Virus genome (UHGV): UHGV-0057547
Length of the DNA stretch: 64,000 bases
Origin: a virus
Strand: one strand, 5' to 3'
Under the pieces are notes generated by a model. It worked only from the letters and a program-made list of their open reading frames with translations. It searched no databases and was not told the DNA's origin. Positions 1 to 29,631 of this stretch are shown here, one piece after another. The position numbers and the translations under genes are program-made. Each line of letters begins with the position of its first letter. The stretch's first letter is position 1.

Positions 1-84
1 AGAAATAGTCTAGTCACTCTAGGAAACTAGGTGCTTAGAATTAACTAAGGTTTATAGTGTAGCGACTATAAGTAAATATTAACG
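1..84 (+). mobile_element. 3' terminal part of a group I-like intron (5' part lies upstream of window)
   Basis: S-like element GAAATAGTCTAG at 2-13. Terminal hairpin TATAGTGTAGCGACTATAA. Ends ...ATATTAACG like the element termini at 23026 and 41131, which share the GTGCTTAGAATT(A/G)ACTAAGGTTTATA...GCGA(C/T)TATAAATAAA block. Confidence 0.55.
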
Positions 85-261
85 TTTGTTTTGCCTTTTG
101 CGAAGCAGTGGAAATTAGCTAAAAATGATGTTTTAGGGGGAGAAGAAGGAATAGAAGATTATGAAGATGTAGATAAAATATACAATGAACAAAATAAGAA
201 TAATACCGAAGTAGAAAATGAAGTAGAAGATGAAGTAGGTGAGGAAAACAATGACAAGTAG
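85..261 (+). CDS. 3' exon (C-terminal acidic tail) of an upstream intron-containing gene, partial
   Basis: Open frame from the presumed 3' splice site at 84/85 to TAG at 259-261. E/D-rich tail. Identity unknown; the position before TerL suggests small terminase or another packaging gene. Confidence 0.4.
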   Translation, partial: FVLPFAKQWKLAKNDVLGGEEGIEDYEDVDKIYNEQNKNNTEVENEVEDEVGEENNDK

Positions 262-401
262 TCCAAAAGAAAATGTTGAAAAAGAAGAAATACTTTCCGA
301 TGATGTCATGAAAAGTCCTCATAGAAAAAGAAGGAATTTATCCCAAAGAAAAAAAGATAGATTAAATGAAGGTATGAAAATATGGACTGCATTTTATAGG
401 T
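251..401 (+). CDS. terL: large terminase subunit, exon 1 (N-terminus; 3' boundary approximate)
   Basis: ATG 251 with SD GGTGAGG about 8 nt upstream. Basic N-terminus ...GMKIWTAFYR. The frame hits TAG at 410, just before the intron core (P element at 450), so the exon must end at or before about 409. Joining to 748 gives ...FYR-L-NIHRFALDFLGL... Confidence 0.45.
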
Positions 402-747
402 TAAATATTTAGCTTATTTTATTAGGTAACTAATAATCTAAACCCTTTGAATTGCTGGAAAGGACTTAGAGCCTATTGAACTACAACGTGACTAGAAATG
501 GTGAGCGTGAATGTTTAAAAATCAATAGGATTGTTTAATCAGCAGGTAAGATTCTAAATTGCTATAAACAATATGAATAAACTTCAACGACTAGAGTTTA
601 AACTCGTAGGCTACAAGTTATTGGTAGTCGAAGCGGAGGGCATCCTTTCATAGGATGAAGATATAGTCTGTTCTTATATGAAAATATAAGTAGTTCTTTA
701 TTTAATAAAGAACAGTATGTATGTAGCGAATACATATGAACATTTAG
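402..747 (+). mobile_element. group I intron (family A), ORF-less, TerL intron 1
   Basis: P AATTGCTGGAAA 450-461. Q AATCAGCAGG 537-546. R CTTCAACGACTAG 582-594. S AAGATATAGTCT 658-669. Terminal hairpin TATGTATGTAGCGAATACATAT then GAACATTTAG|. The 5' splice site is uncertain (about 400-425). Confidence 0.75.
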
Positions 748-863
748 TAAACATCCATAGATTCGCACTGGATTTTTTGGGACTTAATTTATATCCGTTC
801 CAAATTATATTGCTTTATATGATGAATATAATGTATAGCACTTGCCTAATATGTGCAAGGGGT
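748..863 (+). CDS. terL: large terminase subunit, exon 2 (Q-motif/Walker A region)
   Basis: Frame from 750 reads NIHRFALDFLGLNLYPFQIILLYMMNIMYSTCLICARG. LYPFQ resembles the TerL adenine-binding Q motif (L.PWQ). The exon ends ...AGGGGT, the family B insertion context. Confidence 0.6.
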
Positions 864-937
864 AAATAGATATGCTCCATTATATAGAAATATATAATTA
901 AAAATCAATCAAAATCGGTAAAAGTCTAAGTTTAATA

Positions 938-966
938 TTTACATTTTTTAGGAATATAAGTATAAT
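938..966 (+). promoter_or_regulatory. intron-internal sigma70-like promoter for the HNH ORF
   Basis: TTTACA 938-943, 17-nt spacer, TATAAT 961-966. SD AAAAGGGGTG then ATG 988. Confidence 0.5.
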
Positions 967-987
967 ATATAAAAGGGGTGAGATTAA

Positions 988-1773
988 ATGGGTAAAATAA
1001 TAAATAAATATGATAGAATAGGTGAAACATCGATATCAAAAGAAGGATATGAAATGAAAATAATTGAATATATTGATGCAAGACATATTCTAATAGAATT
1101 TCAAGATGAACATAAAACTAGGTTAATGTGTCAATATGGTGACTTTAAATGTAGAAAAAATATTAAAAATCCATATCATCCAGCAGTATATAAAATAGGG
1201 TATTTGGGACAAGGTAAATATAATAAAAAAAATTATCAACGTATATATTGGACATGGAAAGATATGCTGAGAAGATGTTATAGTGAAGAGTACTTAAAAA
1301 GAGAACCTTCTTATAGAGGCTGTTGTGTTTGTGAAGAATGGCATAATTTCCAAAACTTTGCTAAATGGTATGAAGAAAATTATTATGAAGTTGAGAATCA
1401 AAGAATGCATTTAGATAAAGATATACTTGTAAAAATGAATAAAACATATAGTCCACAAACTTGTATATTTGTTCCACAAATAATTAATAGTTTATTTATA
1501 ACATCTAAGGCTATAAGAGGAGAATATCCTATTGGCGTTTCAAGAAAACAGAATAAATTAATTGTTCAAATTAATAAATATGATGAAAATATGAAAAAAT
1601 CAAAATATACAATGGTAAAAAAATTTGAAATAGAAGAAGTAAATGAAGCATTTTTTTGCTATAAAACAGAAAAAGAAAATGAAATAAAGAAAAGAGCCGA
1701 TTTATTTAAAGAATATATTCCAAAAAAATTGTATAATGCATTATATAAATATAAAATTGAAATAACAGATTAA
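988..1773 (+). CDS. HNH-family homing endonuclease with AP2-type DNA-binding region (intron-encoded)
   Basis: WTWKDMLRRC...YRGCCVCEEWHNFQNFAKW and H-LDKD...N...C blocks as in phage HNH/AP2 homing endonucleases. Lies entirely inside family B element 864-2032. Confidence 0.55.
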   Translation: MGKIINKYDRIGETSISKEGYEMKIIEYIDARHILIEFQDEHKTRLMCQYGDFKCRKNIKNPYHPAVYKIGYLGQGKYNKKNYQRIYWTWKDMLRRCYSEEYLKREPSYRGCCVCEEWHNFQNFAKWYEENYYEVENQRMHLDKDILVKMNKTYSPQTCIFVPQIINSLFITSKAIRGEYPIGVSRKQNKLIVQINKYDENMKKSKYTMVKKFEIEEVNEAFFCYKTEKENEIKKRADLFKEYIPKKLYNALYKYKIEITD

Positions 1774-2032
1774 ATATGATAATACCGAGGTAAGATAGAA
1801 AATTAAAAAGTTCTATCCACTGTAGAGCATAGAGATTGAACCTTTGTAAGAACTATTATACAATAGTTCTTTTTTAATTGCAAAGAATAAAATATCTCCA
1901 AGAGTGATTGACACCTTACTATTAAGTTAAAGGTGAAAATATATGCCATACTGAGCTAGAATTGACTAGCTGATGAAAATGAGGGAAACCTCCAGAGGTT
2001 AAGATAAAAAACTTAACGTTAATAATGAATAG

Positions 2033-2125
2033 TTATCGAAATCGTATATGACAGCAATATTCCTTTGTTGTAAAGCAATATTATATCCAAATAGTTTAAT
2101 TGTAGTTTCTTGTTCAACTAAGGAG
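2033..2125 (+). CDS. terL: large terminase subunit, exon 3 (3' boundary approximate, 2125-2142)
   Basis: Only open frame from 2033 reads LSKSYMTAIFLCCKAILYPNSLIVVSCSTKEQARYN. The junction with exon 2 gives CARG-LSKS, a deviant Walker A P-loop. The exon ends in AGGAG next to the family A 5' hairpin. Confidence 0.5.
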
Positions 2126-2338
2126 CAAGCGAGATATAATGTCTCCTATATTAAGTGATTAGTATAGCAAATCTTTTGAATTGCTGGAAACTCCTAAAGC
2201 TCAATTCACTACAACGTAAGGTTAAATCCTAAGCGTGAATGTTACGAAAGTAGAAAAAAGTAATTGAGATGGTATAAGGTTAAATCCTAAGTACTTTTAC
2301 AATGGACAATCAGCAGGTAAGATTTATATTTATTTTAC

Positions 2339-2368
2339 TTTACTTTTAATAATTAATTTCGTATAATT
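2339..2368 (+). promoter_or_regulatory. intron-internal sigma70-like promoter
   Basis: TTTACT 2339-2344, 18-nt spacer, TATAAT 2363-2368, SD GGAGGTG, ATG 2392. The same about 80-nt block recurs at 6497-6579 and 21421-21503. Confidence 0.5.
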
Positions 2369-2391
2369 TAAGTAAATGGAGGTGAAATATT

Positions 2392-3327
2392 ATGGCATGG
2401 AAATATGAAGATGTGAAAAAGTATGTAGAATCATTTGGTTATAAATTAATATCAAAAGAATATAAGACTTGTAAAGATAAACTTCATTTAATGTGTCCTA
2501 ATGAAAGTGATTTTATTGTAAGATTTGATAATTTTAAAAATGCTAAACAACGTTGTAAATGTGATAAATGTAAAGGTAGAAATCCAAGAATGTTTTCTTA
2601 TGAATATGTAAAAGAATACATAGAAAAAGAAGGGTATAAATTAATATCAAAAGAATACAATGGAAATAAAAAACGTATAGAATTAGAATGCCCAAATGGT
2701 CATAAATGGAAAGTAAGATTTACTGATTTTAAAAATGGAAGAAGATGTTATTATTGTTCTTGTTGTTATAAACCTACCATTGGAGAAATTAGAATGAGAT
2801 TATCAAAATATGGTTATACATTGTTATCTGAAGAATATAAAAATGCAAATGAAAAAATTAATGTAAAATGCCCTAATGGTCATAAATATCCTACTACATA
2901 TCATAATTTTGATAATGGTAAAAGATGTCCATACTGTTATAATAAATATAGTAAAGGTGAGTATAGACTTATAAATTTATTTAATAATTATAAAATAAAC
3001 TATAAACATCAATATATTTTTAATGATTGTAGAGATATAAATCCTTTGCCATTTGATTTTTATTTATATGATTATAATTGTTGTGTAGAATTTGATGGAG
3101 AAGGGCATTATGAACCTAGAAATTGGAATGGAGCTTCAGATGAAAAAGCAATAGAAACATATAAAATAACGGTATTACATGATAAAATTAAAACACAATA
3201 TTGTAAGGATAATAGCGTAAAACTCATAAGAATACCATATTGGGAATTTAATAATATAGAAAACATTATTTGTCAAGAATTAAATATTAAAAGAAAACAA
3301 AGAAGAAAAGGTAATAAATTAAAATAA
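2392..3327 (+). CDS. intron-encoded homing endonuclease: 4 tandem Zn-ribbon-like modules + C-terminal Vsr/DUF559-like PD-(D/E)XK nuclease
   Basis: Repeated module Y(V/I)E..GYKLIS.EYK.....L...CPNGH.....F.NFKNG.RC..C x4. C-terminal block PLPFDFYLYDYNCCVEFDGEGHYE...KLIRIPYWEFNNIENII. Confidence 0.6.
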   Translation: MAWKYEDVKKYVESFGYKLISKEYKTCKDKLHLMCPNESDFIVRFDNFKNAKQRCKCDKCKGRNPRMFSYEYVKEYIEKEGYKLISKEYNGNKKRIELECPNGHKWKVRFTDFKNGRRCYYCSCCYKPTIGEIRMRLSKYGYTLLSEEYKNANEKINVKCPNGHKYPTTYHNFDNGKRCPYCYNKYSKGEYRLINLFNNYKINYKHQYIFNDCRDINPLPFDFYLYDYNCCVEFDGEGHYEPRNWNGASDEKAIETYKITVLHDKIKTQYCKDNSVKLIRIPYWEFNNIENIICQELNIKRKQRRKGNKLK

Positions 3328-3484
3328 ATATGAATAAACTTCAACGACTAAGTATCCTAGTAGTCTAGGTAGAGGAAGAGGTCTTATATTAATAAGATTG
3401 TGATATAGTCTGCTCTCATGCGAAAGCATGAGCAGTTCATAAAAGAACGGATAGAATAGTAACGATATTCTATTGAACATAAGG

Positions 3485-3617
3485 AATCTTATAAAGGAGA
3501 AGATAGCTAAAGAGCTATGTTCTCAATCGAAAATGTTAAATAGAGAAATTGCTAAAGTAGTCACTGGTACTAATGAAACAGTGGTTATCTTTAACAATGG
3601 TAGTACCATTCAAGTTT
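3485..3617 (+). CDS. terL: large terminase subunit, exon 4
   Basis: Frame from 3485 reads NLIKEKIAKELCSQSKMLNREIAKVVTGTNETVVIFNNGSTIQV until TAA 3617-3619. Consistent with the post-Walker-A region of TerL ATPases. Confidence 0.5.
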
Positions 3618-3826
3618 AATGCTTTGCACATTGAGTAATTAGTGTGTATAACCGATTGAATTGCTTGTAAATCCTAAAGCTAACTAAACTACAACGTAAC
3701 CTGAAAAGGTAAGCGTGAATGTAGCGAAAGCAGAAAAAATTAGTTAGATGGTATATGGTTAAATCCTAAGTACTTTTACAATGGAAGTCTAGCAGGGAAG
3801 ATTCTAAAATTATTTAAATTAAATAT

Positions 3827-3855
3827 TTGACTTTTAATAATATAAGTTGTATAAT
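3827..3855 (+). promoter_or_regulatory. intron-internal sigma70-like promoter
   Basis: TTGACT 3827-3832, 17-nt spacer, TATAAT 3850-3855, SD GGAGGTG, ATG 3878. Confidence 0.55.
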
Positions 3856-3877
3856 ATAAATAAATGGAGGTGATAAT

Positions 3878-4834
3878 ATGTCAAAAATAATGTGGGATGA
3901 AAAATCAATAAAAAAATTTGTTGAGCAATATAATCATGAATTCATTGAAATTATAGAATTTAATAACATAAGAAGTTTAATAAAAATTAAATGTAAAAAT
4001 AAAAAACACAAACCATTTGAAATAAAATTTACATCATTTAGACAAACTATGCTAAAAAATGGAAATTCTTGCAAAGAATGTAAAAAAGAAGCAAAAATGT
4101 TAAAAAGAGAAGATGTAGAAAACCTAATTAGAGAAAGAGGACTTATTTGGCTAGAGGGAGAGTATATAAGTAATGATACAAAAAATTTATTAGTATGGTG
4201 TGGAAATATTAATCATGAACCATTTTTAACAAGTCAAAATTATATATTATGTAATAATGGTAATAGTTGCAAAAAATGTGGTATAGAAAATAATGCAAAT
4301 AACAAAAGACTTTCATATGAGTATGTATATAACTATATAAAAAATGAGGGTGATGAACTATTATCAAAAACTTATGTAAACAATTCACAAAATTTAAAAA
4401 TTAAATGTGGTAAATGTAATAATGTATTTGAAACTTCATTTGGGCACTATCAAAATAAAGATAGAAGATGCTTATGTAAAGCTCAATCAAGAGGAGAATA
4501 TGAAATTAAACGAATATTTGATAAATATAATTTAATTGAAAATGTAGATTATGAATGTCAAAAAAAATACGAAGGATTAATTGGGGTTGGTGGTAGAAAA
4601 CTTTCTTATGATTTCTATATCAATAATACATTAATAGAATATCAAGGTTCTTATCATGATGGAACTGCTAGAAAACAAACAGATGAAGGATATGAGATAC
4701 AAAAGGAACATGATAAAAGAAAAAAAGATTATGCTAAAAATAATAACATTAATTTATTAGAGATATGGTATTGGGACTTTAATAATATAGAAAATATACT
4801 TATAGAAAATTTTAATTTAAATAATAATGAATAA
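3878..4834 (+). CDS. intron-encoded homing endonuclease, Zn-ribbon modules + divergent Vsr-like nuclease domain
   Basis: CKECK/CKKCG/CGKCN Cys pairs in repeated modules. C-terminal block KLSYDFYINNTLIEYQGSYHDG...LLEIWYWDFNNIENILIENF. Confidence 0.55.
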   Translation: MSKIMWDEKSIKKFVEQYNHEFIEIIEFNNIRSLIKIKCKNKKHKPFEIKFTSFRQTMLKNGNSCKECKKEAKMLKREDVENLIRERGLIWLEGEYISNDTKNLLVWCGNINHEPFLTSQNYILCNNGNSCKKCGIENNANNKRLSYEYVYNYIKNEGDELLSKTYVNNSQNLKIKCGKCNNVFETSFGHYQNKDRRCLCKAQSRGEYEIKRIFDKYNLIENVDYECQKKYEGLIGVGGRKLSYDFYINNTLIEYQGSYHDGTARKQTDEGYEIQKEHDKRKKDYAKNNNINLLEIWYWDFNNIENILIENFNLNNNE

Positions 4835-4999
4835 CCTTCAACGAACAAGTATCCTAGTAGTCTAGGTAGTGGTCGGTATCCTTAGTAAAGGATAATGATA
4901 TGTTCTGCTCTCATGTGAAAGCATGAGCAGTTTATGTGATTAATTAAAATTCACAAATAAACGGTATAAGGTATAACGAACCTTATATGAACACAAATG

Positions 5000-5028
5000 C
5001 AGTAAACGCTTCTCAAAATACAAGAGGT
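5000..5028 (+). CDS. terL: large terminase subunit, exon 5 (29-nt micro-exon, arginine-finger region)
   Basis: Reads (S/L)VNASQNTRG. It ends in AGAGGT, the same GGT context as exon 2. Joined to exon 6 it gives NTRG-LRCHVLVVDEY, the (S/T)xRG...hhhhDE arrangement common in TerL ATPases. Confidence 0.5.
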
Positions 5029-5044
5029 AAATTTTTCATATCAC

Positions 5045-5073
5045 TTTACATTTTTTAATAATTAGAGTATAAT
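5045..5073 (+). promoter_or_regulatory. intron-internal sigma70-like promoter for the LAGLIDADG ORF
   Basis: TTTACA 5045-5050, 17-nt spacer, TATAAT 5068-5073, SD AAGGGGG. Confidence 0.5.
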
Positions 5074-5086
5074 ATAAACAAAGGGG

Positions 5087-5956
5087 GTGATTGAATTGAA
5101 ATGGACTAAGGATATGGAGCAATACTTAATTGATAATTATAATAAATTAACTATTGAAGAATTAGCTAAAAATATAGGAGTAACAAAATCCTCAATAATA
5201 AATAAAGCTTTTTCATTAAAAATAACAAATAATGTTAAAAATAAAGATAGAGGAAATATTAATATATTTAAAAATATAAATTCAGAAGAAAGTGCTTATT
5301 GGTTAGGATTTATATATGCTGATGGTTATATAGTTAAAAGTGAAAATGATAAAAAACATCATAATTATGAATTAGGTATAGAACTTCAAGAATCTGATAT
5401 TTCTCATTTGAAAAAATTTAATAAAATATTTAATGATTATTATAAAATAAAAACAAGAATCAGAAAAATGGATTCATTGGATATTTTAAATGGAAATGAA
5501 GTTTCAAATAGATTAAATAAAACTTGTTTGATAAGAATATATAATAAAGAAATAGTTAATGATTTAATAAAAAATAATATTGTTCAAAATAAAACTAATT
5601 CAGATATATTTCCTATTATAGATGATGACAATATGTTTTTACATTTTTTAAGAGGATATATTGATGGCGATGGTTCTTATGTTGTTGATAGTAAAAATAG
5701 ATACATAATATCAATTCAAGGTAATAATAAAAAATGTTTTGAATTTATATCTAATAAGTTATTAACAAGTTTTAATATTAATTCATATATAACAAAAGAT
5801 AAAACAGGTTGGAAATTAAATATAAGAAAAAAAGATGATGTTTTAAAATTAATAGATTTAATGTTTAATAATTCAAATATTTATTTAGATAGAAAATATG
5901 AGAAAGTAAAAGATATGAAAAAAGCCGTCTTTAATAGAAATATTAAAGATAATTAG
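5087..5956 (+). CDS. LAGLIDADG homing endonuclease (two LAGLIDADG motifs); start uncertain (GTG 5087, TTG 5096 or ATG 5111)
   Basis: AYWLGFIYADGYI and LRGYIDGDGSY motifs. C-terminus NRNIKDN is shared with the second LAGLIDADG ORF at 31569. Confidence 0.7.
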   Translation: MIELKWTKDMEQYLIDNYNKLTIEELAKNIGVTKSSIINKAFSLKITNNVKNKDRGNINIFKNINSEESAYWLGFIYADGYIVKSENDKKHHNYELGIELQESDISHLKKFNKIFNDYYKIKTRIRKMDSLDILNGNEVSNRLNKTCLIRIYNKEIVNDLIKNNIVQNKTNSDIFPIIDDDNMFLHFLRGYIDGDGSYVVDSKNRYIISIQGNNKKCFEFISNKLLTSFNINSYITKDKTGWKLNIRKKDDVLKLIDLMFNNSNIYLDRKYEKVKDMKKAVFNRNIKDN

Positions 5957-6275
5957 AGAACAAAATCGGTCATAGTAAATCGTAAGATTAAGCTGATAAG
6001 AGAGCCTAAGTCCTTATAGGATATGGTAATACCGAGGTAAGATAGAAAATTAAAAAGTTCTATCCACCGTAACGCATAGAGATTGAACCTTTGTGAGAAC
6101 TATTATACAATAGTTCTTTTTTAATTACAAAGAATAAAATATCTCCAAGAGTGTTCTCCACCTTATCATTAAGTTGAAGGTGAAAATATATGCTGGACTG
6201 GGTATGAATTGACATACCATAATGCGAGGAAACTCCTAGAACTAGAGGATAAAAAGCCTTTAGGATAACAAAACG

Positions 6276-6325
6276 TTAAGATGCCATGTACTCGTGGTTG
6301 ATGAGTATAGAATGATACAAGGAGT
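6276..6325 (+). CDS. terL: large terminase subunit, exon 6 (50-nt micro-exon with Walker B)
   Basis: Reads LRCHVLVVDEYRMIQG(V). VLVVDE is a Walker B hhhhDE motif. It ends with the GGAGT 5' strand of the family A P1 hairpin. Confidence 0.6.
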
Positions 6326-7865
6326 AATATATAGCTCCCTATGTTTATAAAAAGCATAGAAAAACTCTTTAATTGCTGGAAACTCCTAAAGTCCTATAAA
6401 CTACAACATGATTAGAAATAATGAGTGTGAATGTTACGAAAGTAGAAAAAATTATAGGAATGGTATATGGTTAAATCCTAAGTACTTTTACAATGGACAA
6501 TCAGCAGGTAAGATTTATATTTATTTTACTTTACTTTTAATAATTAATTTTGTATAATTTAAGTAAATGGAGGTGATAAAATGTTAAAATATAATAATGA
6601 TTATATTATCAATTATATAAATGAAAATTATAAAAATTTTAAAATAGTAAGTATAGATGGTAATGGAAAGGAAGCTATTGTAACTTTATGGTGTGGCGTT
6701 AGTGGTCATAAACATATACAATGCACATTTGCTAATCTTTTATATAAAGATAGTTTTCACTGTAGAGAATGTAAAAAAGATGATAAGATAAACGAAATAA
6801 AAAAGATTATAGGTGATGAATATCAAATAATCTCAATAGATTATATTAGTAATGATTGGATAAGAAGTAGAGCTATATTATGGTGTGGAATAGAAGGACA
6901 TGAATATATTGATGTATCTTTTAAATCAATAATAAATGGAAATATTATTGGATGTAAATTATGTAGAAAAAATAAACATATATTAAAAATAAAAGAAAAT
7001 GTAGAAAAAGTTAATAAAAAATTAATAGAAGTAAAAAAATATAATGAAAAAGATTATCACAAATCAAGAATAATAGTATCTTGTGGTAATGAAAAACATG
7101 AATTAATAGAGACTTCTTTAAATAAAATTATAAATTCAAACGTTAAATGTAAGGATTGCATAAAAGAAGATAATATTAATAAAATGATGCTATATATAAA
7201 TTCTACTCAATACAAATTTAATAAAATTGTAAAATATTGTGAATCAGATTATATAAAAAGTATGGTAGAAATAACATGTCCAAAAGATGAAACCCACATA
7301 TTTACAATGAGATTTTCTAATTTTAAATATGAAGGTAAAAGATGTCCTCATTGTGGTATGACTTATGGTGAACAAGAAGTTGCAAATGTATTAAAAAGAT
7401 ACAATATAAAATATAAATTTCAATATAAATATAAAGATTGTAGATTTATAAATCCTCTTCCTTTTGATTTTTATTTACCTGATTATAACATATTAATTGA
7501 ATACGATGGTAAACAACATTATGAATCAGTAGATTTATTTGGTGGAGAAAAAGGTTTTAAATATACAAAACAAAATGATGGAATAAAAAATCAATACTGT
7601 AAGAATAATAATATAAAATTAATAAGGATACCATATTGGTGTTTTAATAATATAGAAGAAATATTAATTAAAGAATTAAAAGTAAACATAAATAAATATG
7701 AATAAACTTCAACGACTAGAACGTAAGTTCGTAGGGTGTAAGTGATTGACACTCGAAATGGGAGTTACCTAATAATAGGTAGTGATATAGTCTAGTCTCA
7801 TATGAAAGTATGAGCAGTTCATAAGAGAACGTACATAACGTAGCGAATTATGTAGAATATAACGG
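6326..7865 (+). mobile_element. group I intron (family A) with homing endonuclease gene; TerL intron 6
   Basis: P1-like GGAGT/GCTCC hairpin 6321-6337. Hairpin CTATGTTTATAAAAAGCATAG. P 6371-6382. Q 6499-6508. ORF 6581-7705. R 7707-7719. S 7783-7792. Terminal hairpin TACATAACGTAGCGAATTATGTA then GAATATAACGG| at about 7864-7865. Confidence 0.75.
6581..7705 (+). CDS. intron-encoded homing endonuclease, Zn-ribbon modules + Vsr/DUF559-like nuclease
   Basis: Modules with WCG..GH...C.F....CReCKK and CK.C. C-terminal block PLPFDFYLPDYNILIEYDGKQHYE...KLIRIPYWCFNNIEEILIKEL. Preceded by promoter TTTACT at 6530-6535 and TATAAT at 6553-6558. Confidence 0.6.
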   Translation: MLKYNNDYIINYINENYKNFKIVSIDGNGKEAIVTLWCGVSGHKHIQCTFANLLYKDSFHCRECKKDDKINEIKKIIGDEYQIISIDYISNDWIRSRAILWCGIEGHEYIDVSFKSIINGNIIGCKLCRKNKHILKIKENVEKVNKKLIEVKKYNEKDYHKSRIIVSCGNEKHELIETSLNKIINSNVKCKDCIKEDNINKMMLYINSTQYKFNKIVKYCESDYIKSMVEITCPKDETHIFTMRFSNFKYEGKRCPHCGMTYGEQEVANVLKRYNIKYKFQYKYKDCRFINPLPFDFYLPDYNILIEYDGKQHYESVDLFGGEKGFKYTKQNDGIKNQYCKNNNIKLIRIPYWCFNNIEEILIKELKVNINKYE

Positions 7866-8021
7866 TTTTGATACATTAAACTCAGTATTAAGACCATTCT
7901 TAAACTGTGTTAGAATACCAAAATTTAAGAATAGAGATGATGGAAAATATGCAGATTATCCATCAGAGGAAAACCAAGAGATTTATTTGAGCAGTGCATT
8001 AAAACTAGTGCAAACTATGGT
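7866..8021 (+). CDS. terL: large terminase subunit, exon 7
   Basis: Reads (V/G)FDTLNSVLRPFLNCVRIPKFKNRDDGKYADYPSEENQEIYLSSALKLVQTM(V). Ends ...ATGGT before the family B start GAAATGTAGATA. Confidence 0.5.
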
Positions 8022-8341
8022 GAAATGTAGATAGCTATAGTTGAGTATCAATCAAAATCGGTCATATGTATAGTGATATACATGGTAAGAAAGACTAAGT
8101 GTTAATTTAACATAAGTTGATACCGAGGTAAGTTAAGGAACTAAAAAGCCTTATCCACTGTAACGCATAGAGATTGAACCTTTGCAAGAACTATTATATA
8201 ATAGTTCTTTTTTAATTGCAAAGAATAAAATATCTCCAAGAGTGATTGACACACGCTACATTTATTGTGTGAAAATATATGCTGAACTTATAGGAAACTA
8301 TAAGAACTAAAGGATAAAAAGCCTTTAGGATAACAATTTGG
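8022..8341 (+). mobile_element. family B intron-like element, ORF-less (about 320 nt); TerL intron 7
   Basis: AAAATCGGT 8054-8062, GACTAAGT, ATACCGAGGTAAG 8120-8132, CTCCAAGAGTG, GTGAAAATATATGC. Terminal hairpin CTAAAGGATAAAAAGCCTTTAG then GATAACAATTTGG| at 8341. The minimal size is consistent with a ribozyme-only element. Confidence 0.6.
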
Positions 8342-9428
8342 GTTCGAGAATCATTGGAGTTATGACCTCTATTCTTCCCATGTTAAGAAAATGTTAGCAG
8401 GTGATGATTATTTTGTATGTAATTTACCTTATCAATTATCTGCTTATCATGGAATATTAACTAAAAAAAGAATACAAGATATTTTATCAGATGAGAATAT
8501 GTCGGAAATATCATTTATGATGGAATTTGAAGCATTATTTTATTCTGATAAAGATACTAGTTATTTTAAATCAAGTGACATATTACCTTGTAGAACATTG
8601 GAATATGCATGGTATCCTCCAACACCTGAGGAATATTATAGAAATAAAAATAAAGAGAAAAAGAGTTATCATTTGAAGAAATTAAATGATAAAGAACTTA
8701 GAATAATTAGTTGTGATATAGCCTTAATGAATAGTAAAAATGGACATGACAACGATAATGCCGTATTTACTTTTATAAGAAGTATTCCAAAGAATCAAAA
8801 TTATATATCACAAGTTTTATGGCAGGAAACCTATGATGGTTGTACAGCTAAACAATTAGCATTAAATATAAAAAGATTATATTTTGACACTCAAAGTGAT
8901 TATATAGTACTAGATACTGCCGGTAATGGGATATCTGTGTTAGATGAGTTAGGTGAATATACAACAGATGTAGAAAGAGGAATAGTTTATCCTCCATTGA
9001 AAGCAATGAATGATGAAAAATATGAAGAACGTTGTGGTTATTCTGAGGCACAAAAATCTATATTTTGTGTTAATGGTAACTCAAAGTTTAACCACGAAAT
9101 TGCAGTAACCCTTAAAACAGCATTTCAAAATAAAACCATTAGATTATTAAAAACACAATTTGAAGCAGATGACTTTATAGAAGGATATCATAAGATGTCT
9201 CCTAAAGAACAAGCTGACAAATTAATGCCTTATATTCAAACTTCTTTAATGCAAGATGAAATAACTCAATTGGAATATGAAATAAAAGATTCTTATATTA
9301 AACTTTATGAAACCACAGGTAAACGTAAGGATAGATATTCAAGTTTAGCTTATGGTAATTATTTTATAAGAGAAAGAGAAAAAAAATTAAAGAAAAAGAA
9401 AAAAGGTGGATTAGCTAATCTATGGTAG
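8342..9428 (+). CDS. terL: large terminase subunit, exon 8 (C-terminal RNase H-like nuclease domain)
   Basis: The frame is open from 8334 with no start codon before it. IISCDIALMNSKNGHDNDNAVFTFIR ... VLDTAGNGISV match the terminase nuclease-domain acidic motifs. The listed ORF start at 8391 is an internal Met. Confidence 0.75.
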
Positions 9429-9465
9429 TCTTATTAAAATATTGAGAAAGAAAGGGATGATATGA

Positions 9466-10364
9466 GTGAGTGAAGAAAAAAAGCAAAAGAAGTTGTTTGC
9501 AGAAACTTCTGTAGCTAACAATGCACAAAAATATACAACTAAACCAGTTAAATATAGTGCTAGTGAAATAATGGGATTCTTAGAAGACCCACAAGCAAAT
9601 GCACTTAACTTACAAAAAGCTAGTATTTGGTTGTATTATAATAGTGGTATATACAATAGAATAATTAATAACTATGCTGGTATGAATATCTATGATTTAT
9701 ATTTATATCCAACTACAATTAGTAAATTTTCTAAATCAAAAAGAAAAATAACACCTGATAAATTATATAAAGATTATTTAGATATAAGTAATTTATTAGA
9801 AAGAATTAGTTGGAAATCAAATTATCGTAATATAGGAGTTAACCTTATGATACAAGGAGAAGTTTTCTTATATGATGTATCTGATAATCAAGGTACTATA
9901 TTAAAAGAAATACCAACTGAAATATGTAAAATATGTAAGGTTATAAATGATAATTTATATAAATATGCAATCAATGTAAATAAATTAGGTACAGCAGAAT
10001 ATTATTCAATGATGCCTTTAGGATTACAAAGATTATATGACCAACATAAAGCAGGTTCACTATCACCTGAACAATATTTAGGAACTGCTGGTTCAGGTTA
10101 TGTAATAGTAGATGACCCTGAAGCAATATGTTTAAGTTTAAATAATATGACTTCAACAAAATCTGTTCCAACTTTATCTTATTTATTTCCTTCATTATTA
10201 AGATTAATGGAAGAAGAAGAAAATGAAGTTGTGGAAAATAAAGCTAATAATTTAAAAATGATACATATGCAATATGATGTAGATGAAGAAGGCGAATCAA
10301 GAATAGCTGAAGCTGACCTTATAAAAATGCATAATTCAGCTAAAGCCAATTTACCAGTAGGAGT
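9466..10364 (+). CDS. portal protein, exon 1 (3' boundary +/- 1 nt)
   Basis: GTG 9466. Long N-terminal portal-like sequence. Ends at AGGAGT, which forms a P1-like hairpin with GCTCC at 10372-10376. The stop at 10387 lies inside the intron. Confidence 0.55.
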
Positions 10365-11679
10365 AACATATAGCTCCCTATGTTTATAAAAAGCATAGAA
10401 AACTCTTTTAATTGCTGGAAACTCCTAAAGCTCAATTCACTAAAACATAATCTGAAAATGATAAGTGTGAATGTTACGAAAGTAGAAAAAAGTAATTGAG
10501 ATTACCCAAGGTTAAATCCTAAAGGTGAATGAATGGACAATCAGCAACCAAGATTTTAAGTTTAATTCATTGATTTTTAATATAATATAAAATAAAGTGA
10601 GGTAATTAATATAGCATTAAAATGGACTGAAGAAAAAATAATAGAATTTATAAATAATGAAAATTATATAGTAAAAAAAATAATAAGTGGAATTGGAAAA
10701 GAAACGAGATTATTGGTATGGTGTGGTAATCCTAATCATAAACCATATAAAGTTATTTTTAATAATTTTAAAAGAGGAACAAGATGTCAGTCTTGTTATG
10801 ATGAAAGAAGAAGAAAATGGACTGATGAAATTATTAAAGAATATTTAGAAAGTTATAAATATAAACTAATAGAAATTATAAAATCTAAAGGCGTTCAATC
10901 TATTGTAAAAATAAAATGTCCTAAATGTGGATATGTATATACTATTAAATTTGATACATTTAGAAATGGTCGTAGATGTATGCAATGTTTTCTTAAAGAA
11001 AATAGAATTAGTGAAGAAGAAATAAAAAAAATAATAAAAGATAATAAAGATATATTAATAGATATTGAGTATCATAGTTTAGATAGTATTTTATATTTAT
11101 ATTGTAATAAATGTAAAAAAAATTATCCTATTACATTTTATTGGTATTTAAAAGGCGGAAGATGCAAGTTTTGCAAAGAATCAAGAGGGGCTAGAAAAAT
11201 AAGAGAATATTTAGAAAATAAACAATATAATTTTAAACAAGAATTTAGAATTAAAGAATGTAGATATAAATTTCCATTACCATTTGATTTTATGGTTACT
11301 ATAAATGATAATATTATTTTAATAGAATTCGATGGGTTAGAACATTATGAACCTATTGAGTATTTTGGAGGTATAGTTAAATTTAATGAAAGAAAAAGAA
11401 ATGATAATATTAAAAATCAATATTGTAAAGATAATAATATAAAACTTATAAGGATTCCATATTGGGAATATGACAACATAGATGAAATATTAAATAAAGA
11501 ATTAAACTTAAAATAAGGTTCAACGACTAGAGCGTAAGCTCGTAGAGTGTAAGTGATTGACACTCGAAATGGAGAGTATCTAATAATAGGTAGTGATATA
11601 GTCTAGTCTCATATGAAAGTATGAGCAGTTCATAAGAGAACGGATTAGGAGTAGCGACCCTAATTGAATACAACGTTTG
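10365..11679 (+). mobile_element. group I intron (family A) with homing endonuclease gene; portal intron
   Basis: P 10410-10421. Q variant AATCAGCAACC 10539-10549. ORF 10713-11516. R 11518-11530. S 11595-11604. Terminal hairpin ATTAGGAGTAGCGACCCTAAT then GAATACAACG(TTTG)|. The 3' splice site is 11675 or 11679 depending on the donor phase. Confidence 0.75.
10713..11516 (+). CDS. intron-encoded homing endonuclease (Zn-ribbon modules + Vsr-like nuclease); true start probably upstream (non-ATG, about 10608-10611)
   Basis: The frame is open from 10608. SD GTGAGGT at 10596-10602 is followed 8 nt later by ATA GCA TTA AAA TGG ACT GAA GAA, parallel to the 21491 ORF. C-terminal block FPLPFDFMVTINDNIILIEFDGLEHYE...KLIRIPYWEYDNIDEIL. 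Confidence 0.55.
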   Translation: MVWCGNPNHKPYKVIFNNFKRGTRCQSCYDERRRKWTDEIIKEYLESYKYKLIEIIKSKGVQSIVKIKCPKCGYVYTIKFDTFRNGRRCMQCFLKENRISEEEIKKIIKDNKDILIDIEYHSLDSILYLYCNKCKKNYPITFYWYLKGGRCKFCKESRGARKIREYLENKQYNFKQEFRIKECRYKFPLPFDFMVTINDNIILIEFDGLEHYEPIEYFGGIVKFNERKRNDNIKNQYCKDNNIKLIRIPYWEYDNIDEILNKELNLK

Positions 11680-12241
11680 TGTAAATACTAACCCTTTGAA
11701 AGTACAAGCATTAACATTACAAAGAACTGGTAATGTAAATGCAAGTAATAGACAAACATTAACTGAATTAGTTTATAATAATTCAGGTGTTAATAGTGAG
11801 ATATTCAATGGTAATCAAAGTAATAACCAAGCTATACTTACTGGAGTAACAGCAGATGAAATATATTGTGATGTTTTAAATAATGTATTTGAAAACTATA
11901 CTAAATATAGAGTAAAACAATTAAAAAGAAATCCTTTATGGATGGTTAGATTTGTAAGAAACACTCAATACAATAAACAAACTTTAGTAACAGAATCAAT
12001 GCAAGGTTGTACAGTAGGATTATCAAGAATGAAATTTTTAGCTTGTAATCATTATGCACCATTAGAAGCATTATCATTACTTGAATTTGAAACTGAAAAT
12101 GGTATAGATGAATTCTTTGTACCTCTAGCTACTTCTTACACTCAAAGTGGAGATGAAGAAGAAGAATTAGGTAGACCTAAGAATTCAGAAAACCCTGATA
12201 ATCAAAAAGATGTTGGCGAGAATCCTGATAGCACTAAATAA
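11680..12241 (+). CDS. portal protein, exon 2 (acidic C-terminus)
   Basis: The frame is open from 11636 with no ATG. Junction GV-(C)VNTNPLKVQALTLQRTG. D/E-rich C-terminal tail typical of portals. Confidence 0.55.
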
Positions 12242-13098: not shown

Positions 13099-13502
13099 GA
13101 TTAGCTCCCTATATGGAGTGATTCATATAGCAAACTCTCTGAATTGCTTGTAAATCCTAAAGCTAACTAAACTACAACGTGATTGGAAACAATGGGCGTG
13201 AATGTGGCGAAAGCAGAAAAAATTAGTTAGATGGTATATGGTTAAATCCTAAGTACTTTTACAATGGAAGTCTAGCAGGTAAGATTCTAAATTACTATAA
13301 GTGATATGAATAAACTTCAACGACTATTGAAATAATTGTAAGAACCTTATTACAATTAAAGTAAAGTACATTCAAGTGAATGGAAGTAGAGAGTGTCTTA
13401 TTTAATTAATGTAAGATAATGATATAGTCTCAACGTTTAGCGAAAGCTAAAGAAGTTCATAAGAGAACTGCATAAGAATAACGAACTTATGTGAAGATAT
13501 TG
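13099..13502 (+). mobile_element. group I intron (family A), ORF-less; prohead protease-scaffold intron
   Basis: P variant AATTGCTTGTAAA 13142-13154. Q-like AGTCTAGCAGG 13270-13280. R CTTCAACGACTAT 13315-13327. S GATATAGTCT 13431-13440. Terminal hairpin CATAAGAATAACGAACTTATG then GAAGATATTG| at 13502. Confidence 0.75.
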
Positions 13503-21253: not shown

Positions 21254-22596
21254 AATTTGCTCCCTATGTAAGTAAATTGCATAGCAAATCCTTTTAATTG
21301 CTGGAAACTCCTAAAGCCTTGCAAACCACAACGCAACTTGAAAAAGTAAACGTGATGGTGACGAAAGTAGAAAAAATTGTAAGGATTACCCAAGGTTAAA
21401 TCCTAAAGGTGAATGAATGGACAATCAGCAGGTAAGATTTATATTTATTTTACTTTACTTTTAATAATTAATTTCGTATAATTTAAGTAAATGGAGGTGG
21501 TAGATATAAAATGGACAGAAGATAGAATTAAAGAATATGTTGAAAATCAAGGATATACTTATATAAAAAGAATTGAAGGAAAAGCAAGTATGTCGATTAT
21601 AGAAGTTTGGTGTGGAAATCTTAATCATAAATCTTATAGGGTTATGTTTAAAAATTTTAAAGGTAATAAAGCAAAAAAACCAACAAGATGCCCATATTGT
21701 AGTAAAAATAAAAAATTAACCATTGAAGAAGTAAGAGTATTTGTTGAAAAATATGATTTTAGTTTATTATCTGTAGAATATATTAATAATAGAACTCCAT
21801 TAACACTACAATGTAAAAATGGACATATATTTTCAATAAGATTAGATAATTTTAAACAAAGTTTAAAATGTCCAATGTGTTATAGACATTATGGTGCTTA
21901 CACCGAAGATGAAGTTAAGCAATACCTTGAAAGTTTTGGTTATGAATTACTGAATAAATATATAGATATACATAAAAAAATAATAATTAAATGCCCTAAA
22001 GGTCATATTTATAAAACTTCATTTAATAGTTTTAAAAATAATGGAACTAGATGTTCTATTTGTAGAAAATCAAAAGGTGAAGAAAAAATATCTAAAACAT
22101 TAAAAGAATTAAAAATAAAATTCATAAGTCAATTTGTATTCGATGATTGTCAATATAAAACATATCTTCCATTTGATTTTTATTTACCTGAATATAATAT
22201 ATTAATTGAATACGATGGGATTCAACACTATGAACCTGTAGACTTTGGTGGTAAAGGAAATGAATGGGCAAATAAACAACTCGAATTAACAAAAATAAAA
22301 GACAATATAAAAACACAATATTGTGAAAATAATAATATAAAACTTATAAGAATATCTTATTGGGAATTTGATAGCATAGAAAATATATTAAGTAAAGAGT
22401 TAAAAGTAAGAAAATAAATATGAATAAACTTCAACGACTATTCCGTAAGGAAGTAAAGCCACAAGCTATTGGTGGAAGAAATGGAGGATACCTAGAAATA
22501 GGTAGTGATATAGTCTGTTCTCATGTGAAAGCATGAGCAGTTTATATTGAATGAGTATAAACGATGTATGTGTAGCGAACATATGTGAACACAAAG
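21254..22596 (+). mobile_element. group I intron (family A) with homing endonuclease gene; major tail protein intron 1
   Basis: P 21295-21306. Q 21423-21432. ORF 21491-22417. R 22429-22440. S 22507-22516. Terminal hairpin ATGTATGTGTAGCGAACATAT then GAACACAAAG| at 22596. Confidence 0.75.
21491..22417 (+). CDS. intron-encoded homing endonuclease (Zn-ribbon modules + Vsr-like nuclease); start ambiguous
   Basis: The listed ATG is part of the SD ATGGAGGTGG. The likely initiation is about 21497-21506 (GTG or ATA). C-terminal block YLPFDFYLPEYNILIEYDGIQHYE...KLIRISYWEFDSIENILSKEL. Confidence 0.55.
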   Translation: MEVVDIKWTEDRIKEYVENQGYTYIKRIEGKASMSIIEVWCGNLNHKSYRVMFKNFKGNKAKKPTRCPYCSKNKKLTIEEVRVFVEKYDFSLLSVEYINNRTPLTLQCKNGHIFSIRLDNFKQSLKCPMCYRHYGAYTEDEVKQYLESFGYELLNKYIDIHKKIIIKCPKGHIYKTSFNSFKNNGTRCSICRKSKGEEKISKTLKELKIKFISQFVFDDCQYKTYLPFDFYLPEYNILIEYDGIQHYEPVDFGGKGNEWANKQLELTKIKDNIKTQYCENNNIKLIRISYWEFDSIENILSKELKVRK

Positions 22597-22651
22597 ATAA
22601 CTATATATCATTCTCAAGTGGTAGAACAGGAACATTAACAATGAACTGTAA
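22597..22651 (+). CDS. major tail protein, exon 2 (about 55-nt micro-exon; 3' boundary approximate)
   Basis: Reads (V)NYISFSSGRTGTLTMNC(N). An in-frame TAG at 22653 forces a donor before it. It lies between two introns. Confidence 0.4.
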
Positions 22652-23026
22652 CTAGTACAGCGTATGTAAAGAAATTTACATAGGACACAACCTTAAAACC
22701 AGTAACTCCTAAAGCTCAACAACTACAACAAAGGATAGAATCAGAAACCTTTGTGAATGTGAGGAAACTCTGAAACAATAGTTGAGATGATATATGGCGA
22801 GAGCCTAAGTATTGTAACAATGGATGTTTGGTCGCCAAACTTAGAAATAAGAAGGTCAAACGACTATGATTTGAAAGAATCATAAAGCCTCAAGCGAATG
22901 GAGGAAGAAATGGGTTGCCCCTAACAGATAATGCTGAGGGTGAAGAAATAGTCTAGTCACTCTAGGAAACTAGGTGCTTAGAATTGACTAAGGTTTATAA
23001 GTTGCGATTATAAATAAATATTAACG
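22652..23026 (+). mobile_element. group I-like intron (divergent family A subtype), ORF-less; major tail protein intron 2
   Basis: Degenerate P AAAACCAGTAACTCC at 22695-22709. R GGTCAAACGACTATG at 22854-22868. S GAAGAAATAGTCTAG at 22941-22955. The 3' terminal block GTGCTTAGAATTGACTAAGGTTTATAAGTTGCGATTATAAATAAATATTAACG| is shared with the elements ending at 84 and 41131. Confidence 0.6.
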
Positions 23027-27500: not shown

Positions 27501-29631
27501 ATTTAAATAAACAACTAGAAGCCGTTAAAGATTTAATGTCACTTAAAAATATGGACACTAGTGGTATAGATACTTTAATAGAAAGAACTAAAAAATTATC
27601 AAGTTTAAGCGTAGATAAAATAGGTCAAGAGTTTAAGGAAATACAAAATGCACTTGGTAAAGAAATTAATTTACGTTTAGGTTCTAGTGGTATCAAAGAT
27701 ATAGAATCTGCATTAAAAGTTATATTACAATATAGAAATGAATTAAAAAATAAAATAGCAGTTGAAACAGATTCGTCAAAAGTAAAAGACCTTAATAACC
27801 AATTAGAAAAAACTGAGAATATAATAGAAAAGCTTAAAGGTCAAACTAGTGGTGGACTTGGTGCAAGTTTAATTAGCGATGCTAATAATAATAACTTAAA
27901 ACAATTAGAAGATACTGCTAATGGATTAGAGAAAACATTCTCTAATTTAGAAAATGAAGTAAATAAATTAAACAGCGAAGCATTGAATAAGGTTGACATA
28001 AGTCAATTAAGGGAAATGAATGAAGTTGTTAATGATGTAAAGAAAAATTTAGCATCTATTGGAGAAGGAAATGTTAATGTTGATTCAATAAATAAAACAG
28101 CACAAGATATAGAAAAATTAAAAAGACTAATAGAAAACACTAAAAAGACAATTAGTGATATGAAATTAGAAGTTTCATTTAATATTAAATCAAATGAAGC
28201 AGAACAATATTTAGCAGGTTTTGAATCAGCTTTATTAAGATTAGGTAAATCAACTAGTGGAATAAATGATTTAAAAAGTGAATTTGAAAGTATAAAAAAT
28301 TCAGCTAACGGAAATTTAAGTAGTGCCATAAAAATGATTGATGACTTTATTAATAAATTAAAACAAATGGGTAGCAAACAAGGTCTAGGTAATATAAGTG
28401 GTACTATATCTCAATATAAACAATATGCTAAAGAATTACAACAAGCTATGAGTGGAGCATTGAAATCTAGTGGTTCTGATACAGCTAAAGGATTTGAACA
28501 ACAAGCTGATAGAATAAAAAATGCTATGCAACGTTTAACTTCAAGTTTCAAAGAATCACAAAGAGAATCGGCTAATGCTTTTAACAGTAGTTCATTTAGT
28601 GGTTTTTCTTCTAAATATGAAGCTGAAATAAATAAAGTTGAAAAAAGTATAAACAGATTTAAATCATCAATGCAAAATTTAGATAAAGCTGTAAACTTCA
28701 AAAGTTTCCAAAGTGATGTAGGTAGAGGTTTATCTGAACAATTTGACCAAATAATGGCGAAAGCCGAACAATTAAGAGATAAACTAAAGAGTGCATTATC
28801 TTCAGGTACATTTGATATAAGTGAAATAAATAGAATAAAAGATGAATTAAAACAAGTTGAACAAGAAGCAGATTCATTAAAACAAAAATCTATTGTATTG
28901 AAATGTGCCGAAAGTATATCTGAATTAGAAAAGCTTAGTAGTAAACTAAGAGATATAGGTGGAGATACATCACAAATAGACAGATTAAGAGATGAATTTG
29001 TTTCACTTGGTTCAGGTATAAAAGAGGGTACTGCTGGAATAGATGATGCAATTTCTAAACTGAAATCTTTATCTTCGGAAGCACAAAGAACTTTTAGTTC
29101 TTTTGAATCATCTACTGGTAAAATAGGTTCTTTTGGTTCTAAAATACAAGGTTTCTTTGGTTCTATTAAGGATTCATTTAGGAATTTTACTATTGGTGAA
29201 TTAATGGCTGATGGTATAAATCAAGCTGTTTATCAAATAAAAGATACTATATCAGGTTTAGATGAAGCAATGTCCGAATTTAAAAGGGTTGCTCCTGATA
29301 ACTTTAGTTTAAACACATCTAACTTACAAAGTGTTGCTAATGAAGCAAGAGAAATAGGTATTAGTGTTGGGCAATCAGTAGAAGATGTTATCACTGGAAT
29401 GAGTACTGCATTACAAGCTGGTGCAGGCGACATTAAAACAGCTTCTGAAATAGCTAAAAGTTCTGCTATATTCCAAAATGTTACAGATATGGATGCAAAA
29501 AGTGCCTCAAAAGCTATTTCTTCAATGGTTAACCAATATTATGATATGGATTCAGCATTAAATCAAGTTGACCACGGTGTAGGTAAATCTGTAAAAGGAT
29601 ACAATAACTTAACTGAAGCGATGGATTTGGT
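24503..29631 (+). CDS. tape measure protein, exon 1 (N-terminal coiled-coil repeats)
   Basis: GTG 24503 is 7 nt after SD GAGTGGTGG. About 1710 aa of repetitive coiled-coil. Ends ...TTGGT before the family B element. The listed stop at 29663 is inside the intron. Confidence 0.55.

Follow-up and report, generated by a model that had tools for sequence, protein, structure and literature searches.

In the scheme that Michel and Westhof reportedly set out in 1990, group I introns of subgroup IA1 carry an extra P7.1 stem (with P7.1a) between P7 and the 3′ strand of P3, while those of subgroup IA2 have both P7.1 and P7.2; canonical introns of the IA2 type include those of T4 td, Twort orf142 and SPβ nrdE. 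The closest described relatives of the elements considered here belong to two sets of phages and prophages. The introns in the terL and tape measure (TMP) genes of Lactobacillus delbrueckii phage JCL1032, both annotated as joined coding sequences in its GenBank record, are cited in passages of PMC6669764 as proven self-splicing group I introns (Riipinen & Alatossava 2004). For the Bacillus cereus group, the relevant passages of Tourasse & Kolstø 2008 (PMC2504315) class TMP-IVS3 as IA1 and the phage introns overall as IA1 or IA2; the authors also drew secondary structures for homologues of the elements in question. These elements lie in a stretch of 64,000 nucleotides of the virus genome UHGV-0057547 (hereafter the window, meaning the whole stretch analysed); three interrupt terL (c1, c2 and c3) and two interrupt TMP (c4 and c5), and they are collectively named family B. 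A sequence-only reading of this DNA had proposed that they are introns, possibly of group I, and the present analysis supports that proposal: the five elements are very probably self-splicing, mobile introns of group I that form one lineage, of the IA1 type as published for their relatives. The unusual aspect of the locus is the setting, that is, the intron load, and not the kind of ribozyme.

A hidden Markov model (HMM) built from the 3′ halves and run with nhmmer finds exactly five family-B copies in the window, all on the plus strand, with E-values from 4e-45 to 1e-75, at 1772-2038 (c1), 6016-6279 (c2), 8108-8346 (c3), 30474-30695 (c4) and 32378-32644 (c5); beyond these, the search of all 64 kb gave no further copy. 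The five related elements first noticed are thus borne out, five and no more, and the sequence blocks that they were said to share are present in the window. Mapping by tblastn with uninterrupted TerL homologues (595-603 aa) divides terL, at 272-9428, into eight exons and seven group I introns, with family B providing introns numbers 2, 5 and 7. The exons lie at ~272-401 (the first 5′ splice site being placed at about 401), 747-863, 2033-2134, 3482-3616, 4996-5028, 6276-6323, 7867-7999 and 8341-9428, and the introns at ~402-746, 864-2032 (c1), 2135-3481, 3617-4995, 5029-6275 (c2), 6324-7866 and 8000-8340 (c3). Two of the exons measure merely 33 and 48 nt; all are in frame and 60-91% identical to uninterrupted TerL. 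The junctions read ICARG^LSKS at c1 and NTRG^LRCH at c2 (the caret marks the insertion site), and uninterrupted homologues confirm the earlier claim that the TerL and TMP reading frames run on across all five elements.

The one boundary that had to be moved is that of c3, the copy without an open reading frame (ORF). At this junction the uninterrupted TerL homologues all read EIYLSSA-W-(Y/F/M)xxHWSY, and because only GCA U^GG UUC yields A-W-F, the upstream exon ends in GCAU and the intron in G8340. While the boundaries first given for c1, c2, c4 and c5 stand, the junction at 8022-8341 was rejected, as it would add eight residues (LKLVQTMV) absent from TerL homologues; the ORF-less core, put at about 320 nt, really measures 341 nt, with the former 5′ end off by 22 nt and the 3′ end by 1 nt. 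The GGT taken for the end of the c3 exon is the 5′ strand of P2, and the P1 drawn to match the 8022 boundary, AACUAUGGU/GCUAUAGUU, was likewise rejected after homologue mapping, this hairpin being P2. The statement that all copies follow exon GGT with U at position −1 therefore survives for the U in every copy and for GGU in four of the five, c3 following GCAU.

In comparison, TMP carries four introns: c4 (29632-30695), a canonical one at 30709-31089, c5 (31474-32638) and another canonical one at ~32753-33127. The c4 junction, AMDL(V)^NYAG, falls where uninterrupted homologues read AMDLANYAGNNFAISS; the c5 junction, SEAIAG^KTQAGVF, falls where homologue P0121 reads EGLAGKTQAQVF uninterrupted, while homologues P0122 and P0123 enter a homologous intron at the same site. 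Joining 29631 to 30696, 30708 to 31090 and 31473 to 32639 gives spliced translations containing AMDLVNYAGNNFAISS and SEAIAGKTQAGVF, and TMP homologues are contiguous over both stretches, which confirms the boundaries of c4 and c5. Between c4 and the canonical intron that follows it sits a micro-exon of 13 nt (30696-30708, plus strand, AAAUUACGCUGGU) that encodes NYAG and contributes a single base to a Val codon, and across it, too, the homologues are contiguous; the canonical intron scores 72.7 bits against the Rfam group I model RF00028 on 30699-31037. A similar tandem occurs in phiCD211, in which a family-B match is followed 22 nt later by an annotated Intron_gpI. The fourth TMP intron, of canonical type, has an R-like AACUUCAACGACUAGA and an S-like GAAAUAGUCUAC; read-through gives REKQHSPYVQKCA and a stop, an ending also found in homologue P0121, and the TMP exon restarts at about 33128 (IYMDSIAGKFN).

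All five copies contain a P1 with a U·G pair, a terminal G, a P3/P7 pseudoknot, P4-P6, P7.1, P8, P9 and P9.1. The U at −1 is opposite a G in 5/5 copies (P1 strands GGGGU/GCUCC in c1, GGU/GCC in c2, UGCAU/GUGCA in c3, UGGUAA/UUGCCG in c4 and GGUAGU/ACUGCC in c5), and the intron-final G, placed by the exon junctions of homologues, is likewise found in 5/5 (G2032, G6275, G8340, G30695 and G32638, respectively). In the ORF-less c3, P1 (7995-7999/8008-8012) contains U7999·G8008 and is followed by the P2 hairpin (8013-8042) and by the 5′ strand of P3 (8048-8053/8244-8249, UCAAUC/GAUUGA); J3/4 (8054-8057, AAAA) leads to P4 (8058-8062/8122-8126, UCGGU/ACCGA), a P5 of 3 bp (8093-8095/8116-8118) flanked by A-rich J4/5 and J5/4, a P6 (8127-8128/8158-8159, GG/CU) that closes P6a (8133-8153), and J6/7 (8160-8164, GUAAC). 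P7 (8165-8169/8278-8282, GCAUA/UAUGC) encloses P7.1 (8170-8174/8232-8236, GAGAU/AUCUC), extended by P7.1a (8180-8223), then a linker of 7 nt (CAAGAGU) ahead of the P3 3′ strand, P8 (8250-8254/8267-8271, CACAC/GUGUG), which adjoins that strand, and J8/7 (8272-8277, AAAAUA); P9 (8287-8304, GAAA loop), P9.1 (8307-8328), the tail GAUAACAAUUUG and the terminal G at 8340 complete the intron. A plain minimum free energy fold of c3 (z = -4.08) recovers P2, the long-range P3, P6a, P7.1a, P8, P9 and P9.1.

The other copies follow the same plan around their ORFs. In c1, P1 lies at 859-863/874-878, P2 at 880-897, the P3 5′ strand, J3/4 and P4 5′ strand at 905-919 and the 3′ core at 1778-2032; in c2, the guide GCC(GUC) lies at 5924-5929, P2 at 5929-5948, P3-J3/4-P4 at 5956-5970 and the 3′ core at 6025-6275. 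The corresponding positions are 29628-29633/29639-29644 (P1), 29645-29666 (P2), 29673-29687 (P3-J3/4-P4) and 30481-30695 (3′ core) in c4, and 31471-31476/32316-32321, 32324-32343, 32351-32365 and 32387-32638 in c5. P2 is capped by GAAA in c1, c2, c4 and c5; there is a single P7.1 stem with no second hairpin before the P3 3′ strand, and the P7.1a extension is present in c1-c3. The earlier remark that family B lacks the canonical P, Q, R and S strings is literally true, but its conserved blocks are variants of these very elements: AAAAUCGGUGAAG for the textbook P AAUUGCGGGAAAG, AAUACCGAGG for Q AAUCCGCAGC, CCGUAACGCAUA for R GUUCAACGACUA and AAAAUAUAUGC for S AAGAUAUAGUC, the family-B P7 being GCAUA/UAUGC where the canonical one is GACUA/UAGUC. 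The tail GATAAYAA, once ascribed to all copies, occurs in c2, c3 and c5, while c4 has GGATAATAACAATAG and c1 has GTTAATAATGAATAG. A consistent pairing partner was sought for the GAUAAC tail and for the conserved CA(A/C)GAG linker, and none was found for either.

Some peripheral features vary from copy to copy. An extra hairpin between the P4 5′ strand and J4/5 is seen in c3 (8063-8085) and c2 (~5971-6000), most relatives being without it. A small hairpin with the loop AAUUGA (AAUAGA in c4), at 1955-1971, 6200-6218, 30620-30636 and 32587-32604, behaves as a movable module that lies within P9 in c1, c2 and c4 and within P9.1 in c5, and that c3 lacks; the loops of P6a and P9.1 have a common motif, A(A/U)UAAAAAG. 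Both the AAUUGA hairpin and these A-rich loops may be tertiary-contact elements.

Group II introns are recognised by 5′ GUGYG and 3′ AY termini, six domains including domain V and usually an ORF for a reverse transcriptase/maturase. The family-B copies start with AAAUAG, AAAUUU, UAAAAC, AAUUGA and AGUAUG and all end in G; their ORFs are of the LAGLIDADG or HNH type, not reverse transcriptases; and Rfam searches of the window, of 1-12000 and of c3 alone gave no match to RF00029 (group II). A group II identity was thus rejected, with termini, RF00029 and ORF types all against it.

The comparative evidence comes from relatives of c3. A blastn search against GenBank phages returned 92 records, from Staphylococcus, Bacillus, Clostridium/Clostridioides, Streptococcus and other phages and often within TMP genes, and a 14-mer scan of IMG/VR yielded at least 120 loci, with 56 HMM matches containing the full family 3′ half among those listed. 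Pairs were counted in 32 non-redundant members (taken from the window itself, from IMG/VR contigs and from phages and plasmids already published) over a core of ~165-190 positions, with helices cut at fixed offsets from conserved junction anchors. Of 950 cells, 97.6% pair, compared with 78.1% in shuffles (0/500 reach the observed value) and 29-47% with partners displaced by 1-3 columns, and 24 of the 35 pairs vary on both sides. Both-side changes affect 6/6 pairs of P3, 5/5 of P7.1, 3/3 of P5, 3/5 of P8 and 1/2 of P6, all of them helices that stand at fixed offsets and are free of anchor-choice bias; the paired fraction reaches 98.5% in P3, 96.9% in P6 and 93.1% in P8. The TCGGT/ACCGA stem that had been suggested from the sequence is a genuine helix, P4, and occurs among members as UCGGU/ACCGA, ACGGU/ACCGU and UCGGC/GCCGA. 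One pair of P7 covaries in the alignment (GCAUA/UAUGC to GCGUA/UACGC), and one IMG/VR member outside it has GAGUG/UACUC. The first P7 pair is G-C in 32/32 members and is presumed to form the guanosine-binding site; J6/7 reads GUA(A/G)(A/C), and J8/7, AAAA(U/C)(A/G), is nearly invariant.

The family HMM also connects these elements to introns already in the literature. It matches the JCL1032 introns in terL (E 8e-29) and TMP (E 1e-20), the terL intron of the B. cereus 03BB108 prophage-plasmid (E 6e-35), Staphylococcus phage ROSA (E 5e-32) and the TMP intron of pBWB404 (E 3e-23), a plasmid of B. weihenstephanensis (now B. mycoides) KBAB4. The last three correspond, in strain, replicon and gene, to term-IVS2, its ROSA homologue and TMP-IVS3b as these are described in passages of PMC2504315, a matching that rests on accession and location. 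By structure, by homology and by the experiment that PMC6669764 cites for a member (JCL1032), the lineage is group I.

By comparison with the window copies, the JCL1032 introns share the same host genes, terL and TMP, and one HMM family, and its terL intron has the exon GGU followed by the guide GCCGU, P4 UCGGU/ACCGA, P7 GCAUA/UAUGC, a CACGAG linker, J8/7 AAAAUA, a P9.1 loop AUAAAAAG and a GAUAAC tail; they differ in occupying other terL insertion sites, in being ORF-less and in lacking the P7.1a extension. The JCL1032 TMP intron further differs in its canonical P7 (GACUA/UAGUC) and in being RF00028-positive where c3 is RF00028-negative. The B. cereus-group introns TMP-IVS3a/b, term-IVS1 and term-IVS2 and that of ROSA are alike, as far as the published passages describe them, in residing in terminase and TMP genes, in the variable position of the homing-endonuclease gene and in having ORF-less derivatives, and their P4 and P7 covary with those of the window copies (UCGGC/GCCGA and GCGUA/UACGC); according to the same passages, however, they sit in different phages, lambda01-like and further prophages that carry one to three introns each, and the 5′ half of TMP-IVS3b in pBWB404 is rearranged or deleted. 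Canonical IA2-type introns share the mechanism, the core topology, homing-endonuclease genes in loops, a peripheral insertion between P7 and the P3 3′ strand and recognisably related P, Q, R and S elements. In contrast to them, family B has a single P7.1 in place of P7.1 plus P7.2, a shorter P4 and different middle pairs in P7, and c3 has no RF00028 match where one of the window's own canonical introns (family A) scores 72.7 bits; judged by its sequence, family A belongs with the IA2-type introns.

Structure and covariation show that each element adopts the canonical core, in which the U·G wobble of P1 sets the 5′ splice site opposite the internal guide sequence, the P3 and P7 pseudoknot links the P4-P5-P6 and P3-P8-P9 domains, one peripheral P7.1 stem (with P7.1a in some copies) fills the space between P7 and the P3 3′ strand, and GNRA tetraloops close P2 and P9. 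By the mechanism of the family, reported as proven for JCL1032, an external guanosine would attack past the U at −1, and the terminal G would then dock in P7 as the exons are ligated, leaving intact terL (three copies) and tape-measure (two copies) frames; the 341-nt c3 is the same ribozyme minus the ORF.

The ORFs of the other copies occupy two positions, the P1 loop and the distal P5 loop, which are fixed from ORF-less and ORF-containing alleles in relatives; the two separate insertion positions of the sequence-only reading are right. LAGLIDADG genes lie, as that reading had it, 5′ of the AAAATCGGT block; they occupy the P1 loop (L1). The first is that of c2 (5087-5956, 289 aa; PF14528 E 1.7e-14), which runs into the guide and P2 with its last ~11 codons and ends in a stop UAG that abuts P3; the second is that of c5 (31569-32351, 260 aa, with an N-terminal HTH; PF14528 E 1.6e-12, PHROG 4645 E 2e-56), of which the 3′ end likewise overlaps the guide and P2 and the stop adjoins P3. 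The endonuclease ORFs placed between TCGGT and ACCGA are likewise confirmed in the distal P5 loop: that of c1 (988-1773, 261 aa), between the P5 strands GUC 924-926 and GAU 1778-1780, encodes an HNH-type homing endonuclease (PHROG 953, ‘HNH endonuclease’, E 2e-54, no Pfam match), and that of c4 (29762-30469, 235 aa) a zinc-ribbon/homing endonuclease (PHROG 559, ‘HNH endonuclease’, E 4e-57; PHROG 9084, ‘homing endonuclease’; weak Pfam match to CapR). All four are on the plus strand. Upstream of every intron ORF of both families, a promoter scan finds a near-consensus TTTACA/TTGACT-17-TATAAT site together with a strong GGAGG-type ribosome-binding site; these promoter-like sites lie at 938-966 (c1, TTTACA-17-TATAAT, an 11/12 match), 2339-2367, 3827-3855, 5045-5073 (c2), 6530-6558, 29710-29738 (c4) and 31508-31536 (c5), the best matches being 20-33 nt upstream of the ORF starts. 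Such sites are not enriched overall in the AT-rich DNA of the window; their arrangement suggests that transcription of the homing-endonuclease genes does not depend on that of the late host genes.

The same sites are differently occupied in close relatives. SPβ-like metagenomic contigs (48-210 kb) with YonB, YonD and YonG domains carry the C-terminal TerL exon at 98% identity. In four of four close relatives (L127-L130) c1 is absent, and the sequence runs TGTGCAAG(A/G)GGG^TT(G/A)TCGAAATCG across exactly the junction that was predicted; L130 has an empty c2 site (AAGAGGT^TTGCGTTGT), while in L127 and L129 that site holds a 263-nt ORF-less family-B intron with the guide GCCGU 9 nt past the 5′ splice site. 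At the c3 site, relatives have an intron of either 341 nt or 1185-1186 nt, and in the long version GACUAAGU is followed, in distal P5, by an inserted ORF of 263 aa. The endonucleases would presumably cut intron-less alleles in co-infection and so bring about homing, a proposal that fits because introns are polymorphic in presence and absence among near-identical phages. A further family-B terL site, after GUGGU (VLVV^DEYR), is empty in the window and occupied in L128 (8122-8449) and L129 (~6470-7604), one of these introns being ORF-less and one carrying a 249-aa ORF. When the intron-less alleles of L127-L130 are set beside window 855-2045 and 5020-6300, synonymous changes are found right at the insertion sites: the c1 site reads GGG^TTG when empty and GGT^TTA when occupied, and on the 3′ side of the c2 site several codons are different too. 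These synonymous differences fit co-conversion or divergence of the endonuclease target.

The most serious rival concerns the subgroup: family B would be a separate group I subgroup outside the 14 accepted, and the IA1 label a forced fit. It draws on the behaviour of Rfam. At gathering thresholds, the whole 64-kb window gave zero matches, and at E <= 10 the search of 1-12000 gave nothing relevant. The canonical intron at 30699-31037, however, reaches its RF00028 score only in a search of a 411-nt slice, so that the whole-window negative is uninformative: the Rfam speed filters lose AT-rich, insertion-bearing introns, and a clean whole-window result is not evidence of absence. A search of ten loci, which missed even the annotated Intron_gpI of phiCD211, was not used as evidence. 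Among the window copies, RF00028 was searched with c3 alone. The JCL1032 TMP intron, a member of the same HMM family, scores 59.4 bits against a gathering threshold of 50, and along it RF00028 aligns the P3 3′ strand after CACGAG, then P8, J8/7, the P7 3′ strand and a GAAA-capped P9, as in family B. Family B looked odd only because its core motifs are too variant for the standard model; whether RF00028 detects an intron characterises the model and does not define the RNA. The clean Rfam assignment that would have made these elements ordinary was not obtained, for the technical reason that RF00028 is insensitive to the lineage, a sensitivity gap of the sort that a 2025 survey of phage introns discusses.

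A separate subgroup could further be argued from the characteristic P7 (GCAUA/UAUGC), the lone P7.1 without P7.2, the 7-nt CA(A/C)GAGU linker before the P3 3′ strand, the A-rich loops (AUAAAAAG) conserved in P6a and P9.1, the failure of RF00028 on typical members (c3 and the JCL1032 terL intron) and a 2025 survey that finds phage introns more diverse than the current subgroups and the Rfam and GISSD models incomplete. The proposal is nonetheless unlikely: homologues have been given structures, and TMP-IVS3 the class IA1, in the relevant passages of Tourasse & Kolstø (PMC2504315); the JCL1032 TMP intron has a canonical P7 in the same scaffold, so that the lineage grades into standard motifs; and the question is a matter of taxonomy rather than of kind. 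The earlier suggestion of an unusual group I subgroup comes down to a lineage that Rfam does not model and that is already in the literature with, according to those passages, an IA1 member.

Several points weigh against the view that the five elements are self-splicing group I introns of the IA1 type. Splicing in this phage is what we infer by analogy with its relatives, and the IA1 label is taken over from the classification of homologues in the cited passages of PMC2504315. P7 is near-invariant, with one covarying pair only; both-side changes in P4 (2/5) and P7 (1/5), and the paired fraction of 100% in each, are biased by anchors (the P4 5′ strand and J6/7-P7) that were picked partly by pairing. 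In c2 and c5, P1 is a short helix of 3-6 bp, and P10 pairs weakly. Finally, c3 alone (7985-8355) has no RF00028 match even at E <= 10 and the JCL1032 terL intron has none either, so the standard model gives membership no direct support.

It is far less probable that the elements are non-splicing homing-endonuclease cassettes with a relic ribozyme, in a defective prophage whose terL and TMP are pseudogenes or are expressed in fragments. Seven interruptions of one essential gene look like a heavy burden, and the joining of exons is here deduced from the DNA; however, the exons are all in frame and share 60-91% of their residues with uninterrupted TerL, conservation of the ribozyme cores extends to compensatory changes, c3 has a complete core though it has no ORF, and assemblies of this phage lineage from many samples show intron sets that vary beside exons that are intact. 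A distinct, non-group-I class of self-splicing ribozyme, which the sequence-only reading had entertained and which could appeal to the want of an Rfam match at any threshold and to the absence of literal canonical P, Q, R and S strings, is effectively refuted by the presence and covariation of all the defining group I helices, the P3/P7 pseudoknot included, by the 5′ splice-site U·G and terminal G in 5/5 copies, and by HMM homology both to an RF00028-positive relative and to introns cited, in passages of PMC6669764, as proven group I.

Taken as group I introns, the five copies are part of a total of at least 15 introns in 64 kb: seven in terL, four in TMP and further canonical ones elsewhere, at ~10.4-11.7 kb (10410), 13100-13499, 15793, 21296-22596, 22648-23026 and 41520. 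Family-A HMM matches fall at 11512-11671, 13100-13499, 22418-22593 and 22653-23022, and the P element AAUUGCUGGAAA has nine matches at no more than one mismatch where 0.9 are expected. When the literature was searched for intron-rich terL genes in phages, no comparable case and no phage gene with as many introns came up, which is weak evidence of absence. It is conceivable, though doubtful, that this SPβ-like phage combines the heaviest group I load reported for a phage gene or module with a gap in RF00028, and that the lineage may merit a subgroup or model of its own. Were this true, several ribozymes, with two lineages flanking a 13-nt micro-exon, would each need to adopt the right fold and be spliced accurately within a single transcript.

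Gene calling in phages would benefit from a covariance model devoted to the family, because annotation routinely turns a split terL or TMP gene into several ‘hypothetical proteins’. Among Bacillota phages the family-B lineage is common; of the first 120 IMG/VR loci listed that share one 14-mer, about half contain it. If the RF00028 miss holds across the lineage, Rfam-based surveys undercount phage introns. As ribozymes, the elements are less novel than they seemed, being further members of a group I lineage known from Lactobacillus, Bacillus and Staphylococcus phages. Together with its close relatives, this phage nevertheless provides a natural series of empty, ORF-less and ORF-containing alleles at several sites; with LAGLIDADG and HNH genes in two loops of one scaffold, it is a convenient system for the study of intron and endonuclease gain and loss, and is equally suited to asking how many introns one essential gene tolerates.

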